6,025 nt of DNA. Origin: a virus. Its lineage: Duplodnaviria; Heunggongvirae; Uroviricota; Caudoviricetes. The position numbers and the translations under genes are program-made. A model generated the notes under the pieces. The model did not search any database. It saw only the letters and a program-made list of their open reading frames with translations, and was not told the DNA's origin. Positions 1-6,025 of the stretch are shown here, one piece after another. Every line of letters begins with the position of its first letter. Positions within the stretch are counted from its first letter, which is position 1. The stretch is taken from the IMG/VR virus record IMGVR_UViG_2695420792_000002. One strand, 5' to 3'.

Positions 1-249
1 TTCGGGGGAAAAACGAGTATTTTTAGTCATCCTGTTTACCTCTTTCTCAGGAAGTTTAGTCTCCAGGATTCCCGGGGCGGTTCAGATATCACCACTATCC
101 AGTCGTTACGCCATACCTCCGATCTTGATACCGGAGAGATGTATGTCTTCCTGTGTAAGGTTGAAGCCTGGGCGGTGAATATTGGCTGCCACCTGACTAT
201 TCCGCAGAGCTGCGAGTTCCAGCTGCTCCGCGACAAGCAGGAGGCGTAA
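1..249 (+). CDS. 3' part of a nin-region ORF whose start lies upstream of the window; hypothetical protein in the position of ybcN in DLP12
   Basis: Frame 1 is open from base 1 to TAA at 247-249 (82 sense codons). Its stop overlaps the ninE ATG as TAATG, preceded by GGAGG. The listed minus-strand ORF 36..284 is its antisense shadow. Product identity not recognised from sequence. Confidence 0.5.
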   Translation, partial: FGGKTSIFSHPVYLFLRKFSLQDSRGGSDITTIQSLRHTSDLDTGEMYVFLCKVEAWAVNIGCHLTIPQSCEFQLLRDKQEA

Positions 250-419
250 TGGCTACACCGCTTATTCGTGTCATGAACGGACACATCTACAGAGTATCAA
301 ATCGTCGTAAGCGTAAGCCTGAGCTGAAGCCATCCGAAATACCAACACTGCTCGGATATACCGCTAGCCTGGTTGATAAAAAATGGTTGCGACTGGCAGC
401 AAGGAGGAATCATGGCTGA
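249..419 (+). CDS. ninE: NinE-family small protein (56 aa)
   Basis: ATG at 249 with GGAGG upstream; translation [56 protein letters not shown] matches my recollection of DLP12 NinE. Below the size cutoff of the ORF track. Overlaps ybcO start by 8 nt. Confidence 0.7.
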   Translation: MATPLIRVMNGHIYRVSNRRKRKPELKPSEIPTLLGYTASLVDKKWLRLAARRNHG

Positions 420-702
420 TTTGAGAAAAGCAGCGCGTGGTCGGGAATGCCAGGTAAGAATCCCTGGCGTATGTAATGGCAATTCTGAAACGTCTGTACT
501 GGCACATATCCGGCTGGCTGGATTGTGCGGTACCGGTATCAAACCGCCAGACCTGATTGCCACCATTGCATGTTCTGCCTGCCACGACGAAATCGACCGC
601 CGCACACATTTTGTCGATGCTGCATATGCAAAAGAATGCGCGCTGGAAGGTATGGCGAGAACACAGGTTATCTGGCTGAAAGAGGGGGTTATTAAGGCGT
701 GA
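412..702 (+). CDS. ybcO: YbcO-like DUF1364 protein (96 aa), Cys-rich, putative metal-binding nuclease
   Basis: AAGGAGG at 401-407 then ATG at 412; translation [23 protein letters not shown]...[11 protein letters not shown]... matches recalled DLP12 YbcO. The track start at 373 (TTG) is an upstream extension with no SD. Confidence 0.8.
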
Positions 703-1061
703 ATACCTACAGTATCACATTACCCTGGCCTCCGAGCAATAATCGCTATTACCGCCATAATCGCGGGCGCACGCACGTCAGTGCAGAGGGGCAGGCATAC
801 CGCGATAACGTCGCCCGAATCATTAAAAGCGCAATGCTGGATATCGGCCTGGCTATGCCTGTGAAAATCCGCATTGAGTGCCACATGCCGGATCGCCGTC
901 GCCGTGACCTGGATAATCTGCAAAAAGCCGCTTTTGACGCACTCACTAAAGCAGGTTTCTGGCTGGATGATGCTCAGGTCGTTGATTACCGCGTTGTGAA
1001 GATGCCTGTTACCAAAGGTGGGAGGCTGGAACTGACCATCACCGAAATGGGGAATGAATGA
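699..1061 (+). CDS. rusA: Holliday junction resolvase RusA (crossover junction endodeoxyribonuclease), 120 aa
   Basis: Translation [37 protein letters not shown]... is the RusA family signature. GTG start at 699 overlaps the ybcO stop (GTGA), indicating translational coupling. Confidence 0.9.
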
Positions 1062-1198
1062 TGTTTGAGTTTAATATAGCAGAACTTCTTCGCCACCGCT
1101 GGGGGCGTCTGCGCTTATATCGTTTCCCCGGTTCTGTTTTGACCGATTACCGAATACTGAAGAATTACGCCAAAACCCTGACAGGAGCAGGAGTATGA
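1058..1198 (+). CDS. ylcG: YlcG-like small protein (46 aa)
   Basis: ATG at 1058 overlaps the rusA stop (ATGA). Translation [46 protein letters not shown] matches recalled DLP12 YlcG. Absent from the ORF track because it is short. Confidence 0.6.
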
Positions 1199-1283
1199 AG
1201 TCAGAGATAACAATCAACTAATACTGTTTTATTGATTTTTGCTTGTAATTGGCGTTCTGGTCTGATTTTTGTGGAGTAAGTTG

Positions 1284-1667
1284 ATGCGTGATATTCAGAT
1301 GGTTCTTGAGCGTTGGGGAGCGTGGGCGGCTAATAATCATGAAGATGTGACCTGGTCGTCCATTGCCGCCGGTTTTAAGGGATTAATTCCTTCAAAAGTA
1401 AAATCTCGCCCGCAATGTTGTGACGATGACGCGATGATCATTTGCGGGTGCATGGCCCGTCTGAAAAAGAACAACAGCGATTTGCACGATTTATTAGTAG
1501 ATTATTATGTAGTTGGTATGACATTCATGTCACTGGCAGGTAAGCATTGCTGCTCTGATGGTTATATCGGGAAAAGGTTACAGAAGGCTGAGGGCATAAT
1601 TGAAGGGATGTTAATGGCATTAGATATCCGGTTAGAGATGGATATCGTTGTTAATAACTCTAATTAA
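1284..1667 (+). CDS. quuD: Late-gene antiterminator Q homolog (127 aa), QuuD-like
   Basis: GGAG at 1273-1276 then ATG at 1284; translation [26 protein letters not shown]...[16 protein letters not shown]... matches recalled DLP12 QuuD. The track start at 1269 is a TTG extension. Position immediately upstream of the lysis cassette fits Q. Confidence 0.8.
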
Positions 1668-1684
1668 TACGCCAATTATTTACT

Positions 1685-1718
1685 AAAAGTTATTAAAAAT
1701 GGGGCGTTGAAACGCCCC
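1685..1718 (-). terminator. Candidate intrinsic terminator for minus-strand transcripts (distal end of the porin 3' UTR)
   Basis: Perfect hairpin GGGGCG-TTGAAA-CGCCCC at 1701-1718. On the minus strand it is followed by AUUUUUAAUAACUUUU (complement of 1685-1700). Confidence 0.35.
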
Positions 1719-1745
1719 CAAAAATAAAGGGTAATATATAACAGA
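1707..1745 (+). promoter_or_regulatory. Speculative late promoter (pR'-like) and Q-utilisation region just downstream of Q
   Basis: TTGAAA at 1707-1712 and TAATAT at 1732-1737 (19-bp spacer), about 40-70 bp past the Q stop, the distance at which lambdoid phages place pR'. Weak match, position-based. Confidence 0.2.
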
Positions 1746-1806
1746 AGGTTTGTATAGTTAGAAGCAAGGTTGTGCTTCTAAAGGAAGTGGCTTGAGGGAG
1801 CCACTT

Positions 1807-1847
1807 ATATGTTGGGGAGGCAAAGCCTCCCACAACATATCTTTTAG
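1807..1847 (+). terminator. Candidate intrinsic terminator for plus-strand transcripts (tR'-like); also sits immediately 3' of the porin stop
   Basis: 15-bp stem with one bulge: ATATGTTGGGGAGGC / AAA loop / GCCTCCC(A)CAACATAT at 1807-1840, followed on the plus strand by CTTTTAG. Confidence 0.35.
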
Positions 1848-1855
1848 TAATCAAA

Positions 1856-2938
1856 TTAGAACTGGTAAACCATACCTACAGCAACGATATCATCGGTAGC
1901 AACGCCAGATGCTTTCGTGAAATCGCTCTTATCAATCAGGTTGATTTTGTAGTCAACAAAAGTGGACATATTTTTGTTGAAGTAATAGGTTGCACCTACA
2001 TCAACATATTCAACCAGGTCCTGATCACCCCAAACACCCAAGTCTTTTCCTTTAGAATGCAGGTAAGCAACGGATGGACGCAGGCCGAAGTCGAACTGAT
2101 ATTGTGCAACAGCTTCGAAGTTTTGTGCTTTGTTGGCAATATGGTTATTACCAAAAACAGTCATGTTCTGGGTTTCAGAATAGGTGGTGGCCAGATAGAT
2201 GTTGTTCGCATCATATTTCAGACCAGCTGCCCATACTTCAGCATTTTGACCAGAAGCATTCAGACCGTTGTTACCGTAGATAACCTGATTATTAGTGCGA
2301 TCAGATTTAGCATAGGTTGCACCTACACCGAATCCTTCATACTCATAAGTAGTGGAGAAACCGAAACCATCACCATTAGCTTCAGTTACGTCAGTGCGGT
2401 CATTTTTACCCTGATACTGAGCAGCAAAGTTCAGACCATCAACCAGACCAAAGAAGTCGTTGTTACGATAAGTTGCAACACCAGTGGTGCGACCAGTCAT
2501 GAACACATCTGTTTGAGTCCAAGTGTCACCACCGAATTCTGGCAGGACGTCAGTCCACGCACCGATGTCGTATGCTACACCGTAGTTACGGCCGTAATCG
2601 ATGGAGCCGTAGTCACCGAATTTCAGGCCAGCGAAGGCAAGACGGGTTTTATCTTTGGAGGAACCTTGAGATTCAGCGCGGTTGCCTTTGAATTCATATT
2701 CCCACTGACCGAAACCAGTCAGTTGATCGTTGATTTGGGTTTCACCTTTGAAGCCAAGACGGGCATAAGTAGTATCACCATCATCTGCATCATTAGAGGA
2801 GAAGTAGTGCTTAGCATTAACTTTCCCGTACAGATCCAGCTTGTTACTGTCTTTATTATAAATTTCAGCTGCCTGAGCAGACATCGCCATCAGTACTGAT
2901 GCAGCTACAGCAGAAATTGCCACTGTTAATTTTTTCAT
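1856..2938 (-). CDS. nmpC: OmpC/OmpF/PhoE-family general porin (360 aa), NmpC / Lc-type prophage porin, apparently intact
   Basis: Translation begins [23 protein letters not shown] (signal peptide) then [16 protein letters not shown]..., with the C-terminal ...VGMVYQF typical of 16-strand porins. Matches recalled NmpC N-terminal region. No internal stop or IS interruption across the full-length ORF. Confidence 0.9.
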
Positions 2939-3300
2939 CGTGAGCCCTTTTTTTTGAACTATTATTAAAAAATGATGTCACTGCGCGATAAATATTCATC
3001 TAATCAATGTGATTATTTCAAGATGTAAGTTTTAGTTTCTCATTTAATTTGTGAAGTAGATCTCTATTTTTATCTGAACTTTTTCTATCGAAACCTATTT
3101 ATGGCTCTTATTTGAACAAAAATAAACCTATTAGCTAATTTATATTAATGGCTGTTATTTATGGGGGGTCTATAATTCGATGGTTTAATTTAAATTAACT
3201 AAAAATAACGCCGGAAATTATTTATTGGTTATTTGTTGAGGTTTTCTTATGTATTTGTGGTGGTGTTTTGAACACTCGGTAGCATTCTCATAAATATCAT
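2939..3300 (-). promoter_or_regulatory. AT-rich upstream region of the porin gene (promoter and probable regulator-binding sites)
   Basis: Strongly AT-rich, ORF-free sequence immediately 5' of the porin start codon on the minus strand, with many A/T tracts. Boundaries are approximate. Confidence 0.3.
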
Positions 3301-3526
3301 TCAGTGGTTTACGTACGTAAAAAATTGGTTATGCTGTTAAGAGTGGTTACTTCGTCACACAGCTTAAACCCGCCGTCGAGCTGGTTTTTCCATTTTTTGA
3401 GTCTCGATATTAGCTGATAACTCAATACCTGAGTTATTCACTGACTCCGAGTCTGTTACGTTTCTGCTTTTTTGCGATACGTTGTATTCCCTCAATTTAC
3501 ACCCGCTTTGTCTGCGAGGTGGGGTT

Positions 3527-3742
3527 ATGAAATCCATGGATAAGTTAACAACGGGTGTCGCCTATGGCACCTCAGCAGGTAGTGCCGGTTACTGGTTTTT
3601 ACAGCTGCTCGATAAAGTCACGCCCTCACAGTGGGCAGCAATAGGTGTGCTGGGTAGCCTGGTATTTGGCCTGCTGACGTACCTGACAAACCTTTATTTC
3701 AAGATTAAAGAAGATAAGCGCAAGGCTGCGAGAGGTGAATAA
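3527..3742 (+). CDS. essD: Phage-21-type class II holin (pinholin S21 homolog), 71 aa, with dual-start motif
   Basis: GAGGTGGGG then ATG at 3527; translation [71 protein letters not shown] closely resembles S21. Met1 and Met4 give the antiholin/holin dual start. The track start at 3482 is a TTG extension. Confidence 0.9.
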
Positions 3743-4239
3743 TGCCTCCATCATTACGAAAAGCCGTTGCTGCTGCTATTGGTGGCGGAGCAATTGCTAT
3801 AGCATCAGTGTTAATCACTGGCCCAAGTGGTAACGATGGTCTGGAAGGTGTCAGCTACATACCATACAAAGATATTGTTGGTGTATGGACCGTATGTCAC
3901 GGGCATACAGGAAAAGACATCATGCTCGGTAAAACGTATACCAAAGCAGAATGCAAAGCACTCTTGAATAAAGACCTTGCCACTGTCGCCAGACAAATTA
4001 ACCCATACATCGAAGTCGATATACCGGAAACAACGCGCGGCGCTCTTTACTCATTCGTTTACAACGTGGGTGCTGGCAATTTCAGAACATCGACGCTTCT
4101 TCGCAAAATAAACCAGGGCGATATCAAAGGCGCATGTGATCAGTTACGTCGCTGGACATATGCTGGCGGTAAGCAATGGAAAGGTCTCATGACTCGTCGT
4201 GAGATTGAGCGTGAAATCTGTTTGTGGGGTCAGCAATGA
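3742..4239 (+). CDS. rrrD: SAR endolysin (phage-21 R-type lysozyme, T4-lysozyme-like, GH24), 165 aa
   Basis: ATG overlaps the holin stop (TAATG). N-terminal Gly/Ala-rich weakly hydrophobic segment [20 protein letters not shown] (signal-anchor-release domain), followed by the E...D...T catalytic region ([24 protein letters not shown]). Confidence 0.9.
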
Positions 4240-4697
4240 ACAGAGTAACCGCGATTATCTCCGCTCTGGTTATCTGCATCATCGTCTGCCTGTCATGGGC
4301 TGTTAATCATTACCGTGATAACGCCATTACCTATAAAGCCCAGCGCGACAAAAATGCCAAAGAACTGAAGCTGGCGAACGCGGCAATTACTGACATGCAG
4401 ATGCGTCAGCGTGATGTTGCTGCGCTCGATGCAAAATACACGAAGGAGTTAGCTGATGCGAAAGCTGAAAATGATGCTCTGCGTGATGATGTTGCCGCTG
4501 GTCGTCGTCGGTTGCACATCAAAGCAGTCTGTCAGTCAGTGCGTGAAGCCACCACCGCCTCCGGCGTGGATAATGCAGCCTCCCCCCGACTGGCAGACAC
4601 CGCTGAACAGGATTATTTCACCCTCAGAGAGAGGCTGATCACTATGCAAAAACAACTGGAAGGAACCCAGAAGTATATTAATGAGCAGTGCAGATAG
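4236..4697 (+). CDS. rzpD: Rz inner-membrane spanin (i-spanin), 153 aa
   Basis: ATG at 4236 overlaps the endolysin stop (ATGA). N-terminal transmembrane helix ([20 protein letters not shown]) followed by a charged coiled-coil-like periplasmic domain. The track start at 4224 is an upstream extension. Confidence 0.85.
4456..4638 (+). CDS. rzoD: Rz1 outer-membrane lipoprotein spanin (o-spanin), 60 aa, fully embedded in the +1 frame of Rz
   Basis: AGGAG at 4443-4447 then ATG at 4456; lipobox-like LVVVGC with Cys20; proline-rich mature part ([15 protein letters not shown]). Entirely inside Rz in another frame, the classic Rz/Rz1 architecture. Confidence 0.85.
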
Positions 4698-4728
4698 AGC
4701 TGCCCATATCGATGGGCAACTCATGCAA

Positions 4729-5022
4729 TTATTGTGAGCAATACACACGCGCTTCCAGCGGAGTATAAATGCCTAAAGTAATAAAACCGAGCAATCCATT
4801 TACGAATGTTTGCTGGGTTTCTGTTTTAACAACATTTTCTGCGCCGCCACAAATTTTGGCTGCATCAACAGTTTTCTCCTGTCCAATTCCCGAAACGAAG
4901 AAGTGATGGGTGATGGTTTCCTTTGGTGTTACTGCTGTCGGTTTGTTTCCAACAGTAAACGTCTGTTGAGCACATCCTGTAATAAGCATTGCCAGAGCGG
5001 CAGAAAACAACATTTTTTTCAT
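4729..5022 (-). CDS. bor: Bor lipoprotein (serum-resistance / Iss-family outer-membrane lipoprotein), 97 aa
   Basis: Translation from the ATG at 5022: MKKMLFSAALAMLITGCAQQTFTVGNKPTAV... with lipobox LITGC. Matches recalled lambda Bor. The track start at 5070 is an upstream extension. Confidence 0.85.
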   Translation of the reverse strand: MKKMLFSAALAMLITGCAQQTFTVGNKPTAVTPKETITHHFFVSGIGQEKTVDAAKICGGAENVVKTETQQTFVNGLLGFITLGIYTPLEARVYCSQ

Positions 5023-5222
5023 CTTATTATCCTGCATTGTTAAAAACGGCAGAATCCTATGTGACAACAATTAAACGATAGTTAAATGGATTGATGAAAA
5101 TTAAAACTATATAGGTGTACGCTCAGACTATTGGAGGAAGTTGGGGACACTCAGAATCCTGTGGAATGAAATAAACCGGTCTATCCGTCTATTACCCTTT
5201 TAGCTGCGCTGTATCGTCGCCG

Positions 5223-5287
5223 TATTCCCGCATTAACCATGACCGTAGCCCGACGGGGAATTCCTTCTGCGTGAGTGTGCGGGAATA
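5223..5287. repeat. Perfect 10-bp inverted repeat (TATTCCCGCA / TGCGGGAATA) flanking a 45-bp spacer in ORF-free DNA
   Basis: Read directly: 5223-5232 TATTCCCGCA and 5278-5287 TGCGGGAATA are exact reverse complements. The spacer contains a GAATTC palindrome. Confidence 0.5.
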
Positions 5288-5384
5288 ATCAAAAACGATG
5301 CACACCGGGTTTTACTGTGCTGACAGACGCAGGGTTACCCTCATAGTCGCTTTTCCGGTGCGATGGTGGAAGAAACCGGGATGT

Positions 5385-5579
5385 TCATCCATCATCACTT
5401 TGGATTGATGTATATGCTCTCTTTTCTGACGTTAGTCTCCGACGGCAGGCTTCAATGACCCAGGCTGAGAAATTCCCAGACCCTTTTTGCTCAAGAGCGA
5501 TGTTAATTTGTTCAATCATTTGGTTAGGAAAGCGGATGTTGCGGGTTGTTGTTCTGCGGGTTTTGTTCTTCGTTGACAT
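5385..5579 (-). CDS. ylcI: Small basic DUF3950 / YlcI-like protein (64 aa), function unknown
   Basis: Translation MSTKNKTRRTTTRNIRFPNQMIEQINIALEQKGSGNFSAWVIEACRRRLTSEKRAYTSIQSDDG resembles the small conserved protein encoded next to cos in lambda-like phages (my recollection of YlcI). Start codon preceded by AGG. Transcribed divergently from the terminase. Confidence 0.6.
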   Translation of the reverse strand: MSTKNKTRRTTTRNIRFPNQMIEQINIALEQKGSGNFSAWVIEACRRRLTSEKRAYTSIQSDDG

Positions 5580-5743
5580 GAGGTTGCCCCGTATTCAGTG
5601 TCGCTGATTTGTATTGTCTGAAGTTGTTTTTACGTTAAGTTGATGCAGATCAATTAATACGATACCTGCGTCATAATTGATTATTTGACGTGGTTTGATG
5701 GCGTAGATGCACGTTGTGACATATAGATGATAATTATTATCAT

Positions 5744-5778
5744 TTTGCGGGTCCTTTCCGGCGATCCGACAGGTTACG
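5744..5778. other. cos right-end flank including the probable cosQ region
   Basis: TTTGCGGGTCCTTTCCGGCGATCCGACAGGTTACG immediately 5' of cosN matches my recollection of the lambda genome right end. Confidence 0.6.
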
Positions 5779-5790
5779 GGGCGGCGACCT
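5779..5790. other. cosN, the 12-nt cohesive-end sequence GGGCGGCGACCT (terminase nicking site)
   Basis: Exact lambda cohesive-end sequence GGGCGGCGACCT, flanked by lambda-like left-end sequence (CGCGGGTTTTCGCTATTTATGAAAATTTTCCGG). Confidence 0.85.
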
Positions 5791-5942
5791 CGCGGGTTTT
5801 CGCTATTTATGAAAATTTTCCGGTTTAAGGCGTTTCCGTTCTTCTTCGTCGTAACTTAATGTTTTTATTTAAAATACCCCCTGAAAAGAAAGGAAACGAC
5901 AGGTGCTGAAAACGAGCTTTTGGGCCTCTGTCGTTTCCTTTC
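5791..5942. promoter_or_regulatory. cosB: terminase small-subunit binding sites R3, R2 and R1 with an intervening AT-rich IHF-like site
   Basis: CGTTTCC motifs: R3 at about 5831-5848 (CGTTTCCGTTCTTCTTCG); R2 and R1 form a perfect 15-bp inverted repeat GAAAGGAAACGACAG (5888-5902) / CTGTCGTTTCCTTTC (5928-5942); AT-rich TAACTTAATGTTTTTATTTAAAATA between R3 and R2. Confidence 0.75.
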
Positions 5943-5967
5943 TCTGTTTTTGGCCGTGGAATGAACA

Positions 5968-6025
5968 ATGGAAGTCAACAAAAAGCAGCTGGCTGACATT
6001 TTCGGTGCGAGTATCCGTACCATTC
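5968..6025 (+). CDS. nu1: Terminase small subunit Nu1, N-terminal 19 codons only (continues beyond the window)
   Basis: ATG at 5968; translation MEVNKKQLADIFGASIRTI is identical to the lambda gpNu1 N-terminus as I recall it; located just downstream of cosB. Confidence 0.85.
   Translation, partial: MEVNKKQLADIFGASIRTI

Follow-up and report, generated by a model that had tools for sequence, protein, structure and literature searches.

The ylcI gene and its surroundings

The window analyzed here is a stretch of 6,025 bp taken from a tailed-virus record (IMG/VR IMGVR_UViG_2695420792_000002, Caudoviricetes). It covers the end of the late region in an Escherichia coli lambdoid prophage of the DLP12/434 type, and positions 85-6025 are 100% identical to NZ_CP148385. 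The subject of this work is ylcI, a gene which spans positions 5385-5579 on the minus strand, stop codon included (ATG at 5579-5577, stop codon at 5387-5385), and encodes a 64-aa protein, MSTKNKTRRTTTRNIRFPNQMIEQINIALEQKGSGNFSAWVIEACRRRLTSEKRAYTSIQSDDG, predicted to belong to the ribbon-helix-helix (RHH) proteins. The product is a member of the DUF3950/YlcI-YnfO family. It exceeds the curated cut-offs of Pfam DUF3950 (PF13132; 73 bits vs a cut-off of 25) and NCBIfam YlcI_YnfO_N (NF041551; 37.7 bits vs a cut-off of 30), carries the motif of the family, and matches phrog_949 (function unknown) at E 5e-35. RefSeq names the gene at the identical locus, between iss/bor and nohD, ylcI, "YlcI/YnfO family protein"; the same gene is a hypothetical DUF3950 protein in the annotation of phage 434, and UniProt labels YLCI_ECOLI "Uncharacterized protein YlcI". 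No functional study of ylcI was found in the databases and literature searched. The sequence-only reading of the window had described a 64-aa open reading frame (ORF) at 5385-5579 beside cos, and placed it in an uncharacterized DUF3950/YlcI family. The ORF, the Pfam and NCBIfam matches and the RefSeq entry agree with that description in every detail, and the family is uncharacterized as far as databases and literature show. Since the gene is already annotated, what is new here is limited to the assignment of a functional class and to the link with a candidate family of satellite repressors.

In the prophage, genes are ordered ninE, ybcO, rusA, ylcG, quuD, a porin gene (minus strand), essD, rrrD, rzpD, iss/bor (minus strand), ylcI (minus strand) and nohD. 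The iss/bor lipoprotein gene (4729-5022, minus strand) is located downstream of ylcI and co-oriented with it. On the opposite side, the window includes the 5' end of nohD (5968-6025, plus strand), which encodes a small terminase subunit of the Nu1 type. Because nohD starts at 5968 on the plus strand, and ylcI resides on the minus strand, the two genes are divergent. The cohesive-end 12-mer of cosN, GGGCGGCGACCT, was located in the window sequence at 5779-5790 (plus strand); it is the lambda cohesive end, in agreement with the ends of the database records. The cosQ motif GGGTCCT (5749-5755, plus strand) was transferred from the annotation of phage 434. The ATG of ylcI is 200 bp from cosN, and the gene lies 170 bp to the left of cosQ, not within the cosQ-cosN-cosB segment. 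Both the divergence from the terminase gene and the distance of about 200 bp from cosN had been noticed earlier, and are correct.

A block that takes in ylcI with the DNA upstream of it and the left portion of cos (5368-5778) is common to lambda, K-12 DLP12 and phage 434 at 96-98%. The bor-ylcI-cos layout of the window is that of phage 434 (98% over 4700-5778). Homology to lambda and K-12 is regained at a point 17 bp 3' of the stop codon of ylcI and from there extends to cos, and ylcI therefore moves with the cos block. The gap between bor and ylcI (5077-5367) is the phage 434 version, without ybcV (DUF1398) and ybcW (lambda p78/p79), and holds a 10-bp inverted repeat with a 45-nt spacer (5223-5232/5278-5287). 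In lambda, 434, DLP12 and Shiga toxin (Stx) phages the gene opposes the late operon, and is placed between lysis and packaging genes; the neighbor on the packaging side is cos-Nu1 in lambda, 434 and DLP12, HNH-TerS-TerL in Stx phages.

The same gene is found in lambda at 48109-48303 (minus strand), where it is unannotated both in NC_001416 and in J02459; its product is 100% identical to YLCI_ECOLI. Gene-by-gene screens of lambda that start from the annotated genes, among them the CRISPR interference (CRISPRi) essentiality map, omit this ORF. The "orf-64" of the lambda literature was considered as a possible synonym and rejected, since that name denotes lambdap73, a distinct gene located between Q and S. 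The Nu1-Orf64 interaction detected by yeast two-hybrid, as well as the CRISPRi data, are thus not applicable to ylcI. The closest known relatives of the window product are YlcI (DLP12) and YnfO (Qin) of K-12, of families PF13132 and NF041551, and K-12 ylcI is the same gene as that of the window. The window protein is ~95% identical to YLCI_ECOLI, which is encoded at the same bor-nohD position in DLP12, but the C-terminal residues differ (QSDDG in the window, KSDEE in K-12), and in K-12 borD and ylcI are separated by ybcV and ybcW, which the 434-type window lacks. For K-12, a convergent ybcW-ylcI excludon is reported from at least half of the RNA-seq samples analyzed (PMC12288877), and transcription of ylcI is thereby implied. 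Mutations in ylcI incidentally reported in evolution experiments are probably the result of mis-mapping of paralogues, and uninformative on function.

Conservation of ylcI

ylcI is a real gene under strong purifying selection, not a chance reading frame. The ratio of nonsynonymous to synonymous divergence (dN/dS) is 0.05-0.15 when lambda-type and Stx-phage-type alleles are compared (dS 0.7-2, dN ~0.1), and the DNA flanking the two allele types is unrelated. A match was found in 3783 of the 5426 complete E. coli genomes (70%), with up to 12 copies per genome, and at least 578 viral contigs encode a relative. Homologues showing 34-60% identity occur across Enterobacterales and in Pasteurellaceae, and keep the motif K-x-IRFP-h-x-L-h-E-x-I ... 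NFSAWV-x-[ED]-AC. In a set of 23 diverse members, residues I15, R16, F37 and V41 are invariant, F17, S38, W40, A44 and C45 near-invariant. The C-terminal tails vary among lambda, YnfO and Stx types. The family is narrow, as 138 clusters (50% identity) were retrieved at E 1e-3 among 1.8 billion representatives; most of them are frameshifted lambda control-DNA reads, and ~20 true divergent members are usable.

The right end of lambda was met in many assemblies of unrelated taxa (Streptomyces, Cohnella, Pedobacter, metagenome-assembled genomes and others), and in European Nucleotide Archive contigs of ~3.5 kb. These matches are almost certainly contamination by sequencing-control DNA. Such reads swamp homology searches with frameshifted pseudo-homologues.

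A predicted ribbon-helix-helix fold

YlcI is likely folded as an RHH protein, though no single score is significant. In the AlphaFold2 monomer model, obtained from an alignment of the 23 diverse members (mean predicted local distance difference test score, pLDDT, 67.7), an extended basic N-terminus (segment 13-18) is followed by a helix (19-32), a turn (G33-N36) and a second helix (37-60). RHH proteins are obligate dimers, and the absence of a strand from the monomer model is expected for this reason. In a Foldseek comparison with the PDB, the top ranks were taken by StnY (CopG family), NikR, ParD2, Arc, HicB, MazE9, CopA_SO and VapB. RHH matches had root-mean-square deviations of 1.6-2.0 Å over ~40 residues, with E values of only 0.6-6, and the model resembles in structure solved members of the class. 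The best structural matches are domains of the CopG/RHH_1 type (StnY 9kkd, TacA2 7ak7, CopA_SO 6iya, PutA52 2rbf), and StnY aligns with the YlcI family also at the profile level, in the expected register (E 0.67). These plasmid and antitoxin domains differ from YlcI, which is devoid of a toxin or enzyme partner domain.

Arc provides the closest guide to the register. In the hhalign alignment TTRNIRFP of YlcI is superimposed on PQFNLRWP of Arc (P 0.012), and YlcI residues T12, N14 and R16 thus fall on Arc Q9, N11 and R13, the residues that contact bases. Like YlcI, the Arc and Mnt repressors of phage P22 are small phage-borne regulators of similar size, with an N-terminal arm and a strand-helix-helix order. 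In register, IRFP in YlcI corresponds to LRWP, and G-x-x-N-x-S is found at the start of helix 2. The similarity in sequence to YlcI is, however, not significant, as the hhalign value indicates. Helix 2 is longer in YlcI, a C-terminal tail is present, and the proposed operators are candidate sites. The location in the genome differs as well, Arc and Mnt being encoded in immI of P22, ylcI in the gap between lysis genes and cos.

Pfam RHH models do not match the window protein, and no RHH profile gave a significant match, E being 0.14 for the PHROG Arc-like profile, 0.023 for the HicB-like profile and 0.67 for StnY. When the PDB was searched with the single protein sequence, only chance matches to L16 were obtained. 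The resemblance to small DNA-binding folds such as RHH, already suggested from the letters of the window, is on the whole supported by the AlphaFold2 model, the RHH proteins at the top of the Foldseek ranks, and the Arc register.

Relatives in satellite elements

Divergent homologues (40-50% identity) retrieved from bacterial genomes reside mostly in satellites of the phage-inducible chromosomal island (PICI) type, not in phages. The loci concerned are L045-L086 and L173 of our set (as examples, L062:3600-3752 and L066:5850-6001). Genes follow the order int (minus strand), alpA (minus), sometimes an AntA-like gene (minus), the DUF3950 gene (plus), small genes (minus), DUF4222 (minus) and primase (minus). 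The primase is of the Zn-ribbon/Toprim/D5 type, and an Icd-like gene is present in the O157:H7 island. The DUF3950 gene converges on alpA and is transcribed away from the replication operon. YlcI/YnfO proteins appear among the genes of Enterobacter capsid-forming PICIs (cf-PICIs) in a 2026 survey (PMC13612085); apart from that gene list, no mention of this gene in PICIs was found in the literature, and a cf-PICI preprint searched for a repressor makes no mention of one. In Gram-negative PICIs the global repressor is described as unclear, and the phage-encoded inducer as still under study (PMC6092414).

Three copies of a 12-bp box, GTG-N6-CAC, are found upstream of the PICI DUF3950 gene. Boxes 1 and 2, 23 bp apart, flank an opposite-strand promoter (TTGACG-18-TAAGGT), and box 3 overlaps the -10 of the DUF3950 gene itself, TATAGT. 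In 20 PICI loci, 36 exact boxes were counted in 2.64 kb of upstream DNA, vs 0.22 per kb in the flanks, an enrichment that the nominal P overstates, as the loci are related to one another. Boxes are kept where spacers have diverged, as in Xenorhabdus, Morganella and Pectobacterium (L068, L074 and L076). Other DUF3950 subfamilies have different upstream palindromes, GGTAnnTACC over the start codon, or GTAAC/GTTAC. The DUF3950 gene is the sole constant neighbor of the boxes.

Variation in the core of the box follows that in the six residues just before IRF (Mantel r 0.63, p 0.0002), while r is ~0 for helix 1 and helix 2. The arm STTKG pairs with the box core GTGCACAWACAC, xYKG with GTTTAAACAC, AKKN with GTGCGCACAG. 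Linkage explains part of this signal, r being 0.27-0.32 for adjacent non-box DNA and 0.50 for residues 1-7; still, the N-terminal arm is the strongest correlate of the box core. The PICI layout is, on sequence grounds, that predicted of a small divergent-promoter repressor.

A similar layout is known for Stl/Rpr, the master repressors of Gram-positive PICIs. PICI DUF3950 genes are alike in being placed at a divergent regulatory junction by int, facing the replication operon, and, for the PICI paralogues only, in the operators predicted over both promoters. Fold and size are in contrast unrelated, and the analogy may apply to the PICI paralogues, not to the window gene.

The 5' leader of the divergent operon (L066:5790-5880, minus strand, and 17 other loci) can form two conserved hairpins marked by compensatory changes. 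The loop of hairpin 1 includes a GTG-N6-CAC box, that of hairpin 2 the Shine-Dalgarno sequence directly before the ATG. No Rfam family matched these hairpins. In E. coli 90-3040 (L086; CP027459 3713563-3725925) a PICI is inserted among the packaging genes of a prophage. An N-terminal and a C-terminal fragment of TerS, and a short TerL-like start, adjoin the PICI int, and three DUF3950 genes are present, one of them belonging to the prophage, the others to the PICI. The locus fits the published class of "helper-embedded PICI".

DNA upstream of the window copy

The box pattern of PICIs does not carry over to the window, where no GTG-N6-CAC box was found. A candidate operator box, CGTATTCAGTGTC, is located at 5590-5602 (plus strand), just 5' of the start codon and beside the ribosome-binding site. 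The latter may correspond to GGGG (5587-5590, minus strand), a weak Shine-Dalgarno candidate 8-11 nt 5' of the ATG, and a ribosome-binding site is annotated at the same position in phage 434. The upstream regions of lambda-type and Stx-type genes do not align except for one 11-mer of the box, GTATTCAGTGT, which recurs upstream of one Stx-type homologue in otherwise unrelated DNA, with an estimated chance probability of ~2%. A second candidate operator is the inverted repeat ATCAATTAATACG-N7-CGTCATAATTGAT (5649-5681), 70-102 bp 5' of the ATG, the arms of which are variants of the CGTATTCAGTGTC box. The perfect palindrome TTGAT-GCAG-ATCAA (5640-5653) overlaps its left arm. Three of the four matches in the window to the derived 13-mer fall within 92 bp, a clustering to be read with the fact that the pattern was derived from those same sites; confidence in the 5590-5602 box is low for this reason.

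The 8-mer TTGACGTG (5685-5692, plus strand) is the same as the -35 of the divergent promoter at box 2 in PICI homologues. In the window it may be a vestige, as no usable -10 follows. No sigma-70-like promoter or terminator was found for ylcI on the minus strand. Phylogenetic footprinting of the ylcI-cos intergenic region gave no signal, the 38 unique sequences being almost invariant, and an Rfam scan of the window returned nothing real. On the plus strand, a sigma-70-like element (GTGACA-16-TATCAT, 5716-5743; 10 of 12 positions match) faces cos and Nu1. Directly left of cosQ, a near-perfect palindrome, ATGATAAT-T-ATTATCAT (5727-5743), overlaps with this element, the -10 of which is weaker in lambda (TATCAC). 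Matches to the CII-site pattern are annotated in phage 434 on the strand pointing away from ylcI.

Proposed function and alternatives

ylcI may encode a stand-alone small DNA-binding repressor of the RHH Arc/CopG type, a view to which we give about even chances. By analogy with the RHH fold, YlcI would dimerize through the strand N14-I15-R16-F17, and the resulting two-stranded sheet, together with the Lys/Arg/Thr-rich N-terminal arm, would read DNA; helix 2 would start at the N-cap N36-F37-S38. The gene is a stand-alone cassette traveling with the cos block of lambdoid prophages. Its constant orientation against the late operon makes it suited to be expressed in the lysogen, as it presumably is. 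YlcI would most likely act as a repressor at short repeated or palindromic sites in a promoter region common with the divergent downstream module, and in the window the candidate sites at 5590-5602 and 5649-5681 could play this role. The consequence would be autoregulation, and possibly the silencing, in the prophage, of the DNA that directly precedes the packaging genes; YlcI would not be a component of cos. The phage arrangement matches topologically that of PICIs, as in both a counter-oriented RHH gene is set in a long operon, facing the next module.

A broader scenario is possible, but on balance unlikely. DUF3950 proteins could be an unrecognized class of RHH switch repressors of Gram-negative satellites, encoded counter-oriented between alpA-int and the replication operon, which they would keep off through GTG-N6-CAC operators. 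The lambdoid copies would be relatives which insulate the packaging genes in the lysogen, or which talk to resident satellites by competing for operators or by forming mixed dimers. In that case, lambda carries an unannotated regulator bearing on how Gram-negative PICIs stay silent and get induced. The link to PICIs is the most interesting lead of this work, and directly testable. In the literature the repressor of Gram-negative PICIs is called unclear, and the link supplies a concrete candidate for it. Lambda and the cryptic prophages of K-12 have been studied intensely, yet the gene has no known function, and is missing in the lambda reference annotation; assignment to a class of RHH repressors makes its function directly testable. 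Should YlcI prove to be an orphan regulator that controls no more than its own gene, the finding would be a modest addition to the small repressors of phages.

Vicinity to cos had suggested, in the sequence-only reading, either packaging control or a moron regulator. As a packaging accessory, YlcI would bind DNA at the cosQ end of cos, or contact the small subunit of terminase, and modulate cos recognition, cutting or termination. The ATG is close to cosN, gene and cos are inherited as one block, and the gene is directly upstream of packaging genes in two module types (Nu1 cos, HNH-TerS). Moreover, two independent PICI proteins (P0244 and P0188) fuse DUF3950 to residues 1-53 (helix-turn-helix, HTH) of a Terminase_2 small subunit. 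The fusions (L086:6001-6363 and L085:4714-5103, both plus strand; 120 and 129 aa) adjoin alpA-int, and the Prokaryotic Genome Annotation Pipeline names the fusion "terminase small subunit". The HTH of the E. coli 90-3040 fusion shares 64% identity with the N-terminal part of TerS from the helper prophage, and 53% with the TerS of the PICI itself. A borrowed HTH, however, does not by itself imply packaging, and most of the divergent homologues reside at a distance from terS, in the part of the PICI devoted to regulation. Both the gene and the candidate sites fall outside cosQ-cosN-cosB, lambda packaging requires no more than terminase, IHF and a cos fragment a few hundred bp long, and the gene opposes the late operon, so that expression in the late phase is unlikely. 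A packaging role is hence improbable, and this part of the earlier suggestion is not supported; a small repressor is the best reading. With respect to the criteria for morons, ylcI is oriented opposite to the phage operon, a sigma-70-like promoter and a terminator were looked for on its strand and not found, and transcription of the K-12 gene is reported indirectly (PMC12288877). Quite unlikely, too, is cross-talk between helper and satellite, in which the phage copy would bind PICI operators, or form mixed dimers with the RHH paralogues of PICIs, and silence or de-repress satellites. Obligate dimerization of RHH proteins fits mixed dimers, the family is common to lambdoid helper phages and PICIs, and one E. 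coli locus is a helper-embedded PICI with two copies beside the prophage copy; in the literature, moreover, the global repressor of Gram-negative PICIs is called unclear, and the phage-encoded inducer was still being studied (PMC6092414). Yet the arm of the lambda type (TTTRN) falls in none of the classes of PICI arms, the window lacks PICI-type boxes, and the defective prophages DLP12 and Qin keep the gene without an evident satellite.

The likeness to TacA, ParD, VapB and CopA raises the question whether YlcI neutralizes a partner through its variable C-terminal tail. RHH antitoxins are frequent among the best structural matches, and tails differ among lambda, YnfO and Stx types. In Qin and other prophages of the E. 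coli group a DUF1398 gene comes next after ynfO, and read-through fusions are known. However, a conserved co-oriented neighbor is absent in the window, lambda, phage 434, Stx phage and PICI loci. In lambda and K-12 the oppositely oriented p79/ybcW is interposed between ylcI and the DUF1398 gene, and the phage 434 type and the window lack both. In PICIs, the co-oriented ORFs downstream are non-conserved singletons, and a toxin partner is therefore absent in these loci. Models of defense systems miss the window protein, PADLOC giving one chance-level match among the four proteins scanned. An antitoxin-like role is accordingly very unlikely, and a type II antitoxin was rejected for want of a partner gene. 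That ylcI is a decaying or functionless ORF, kept only through its overlap with conserved cos-flanking DNA, is scarcely credible. The missing annotation in lambda reference records, the lack of a known phenotype and of a clear promoter are in line with decay, but this is contradicted by a dN/dS of 0.05-0.15 at saturated synonymous divergence between lambda-type and Stx-type alleles set in unrelated flanks, and by the conservation of homologues across genera and contexts.

Additional observations

An intact gene for a 360-aa porin of the OmpC/NmpC type (RefSeq name ompC) is located in the window at 1856-2938 (minus strand), where it separates quuD, the antiterminator gene, from the lysis genes and is oriented opposite to them. 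In the Pasteurella "phage" Pmp7 (L171; OR544138) an unannotated DUF3950 ORF (4778-5032, plus strand; MATGNKNNKSLKKGIRFPHELIQQ...) is antisense to an annotated 224-aa "transcriptional repressor", apparently a spurious low-complexity frame. In Salmonella enterica subsp. diarizonae and arizonae (L050 and L053) a DUF3950 homologue of the IRFSY subtype, preceded by the palindrome GTAAC-N2-GTTAC, lies outside any obvious phage or PICI, and its neighbor is a gene of ~560 aa resembling by eye the inositol phosphatase effector SopB/SigD.
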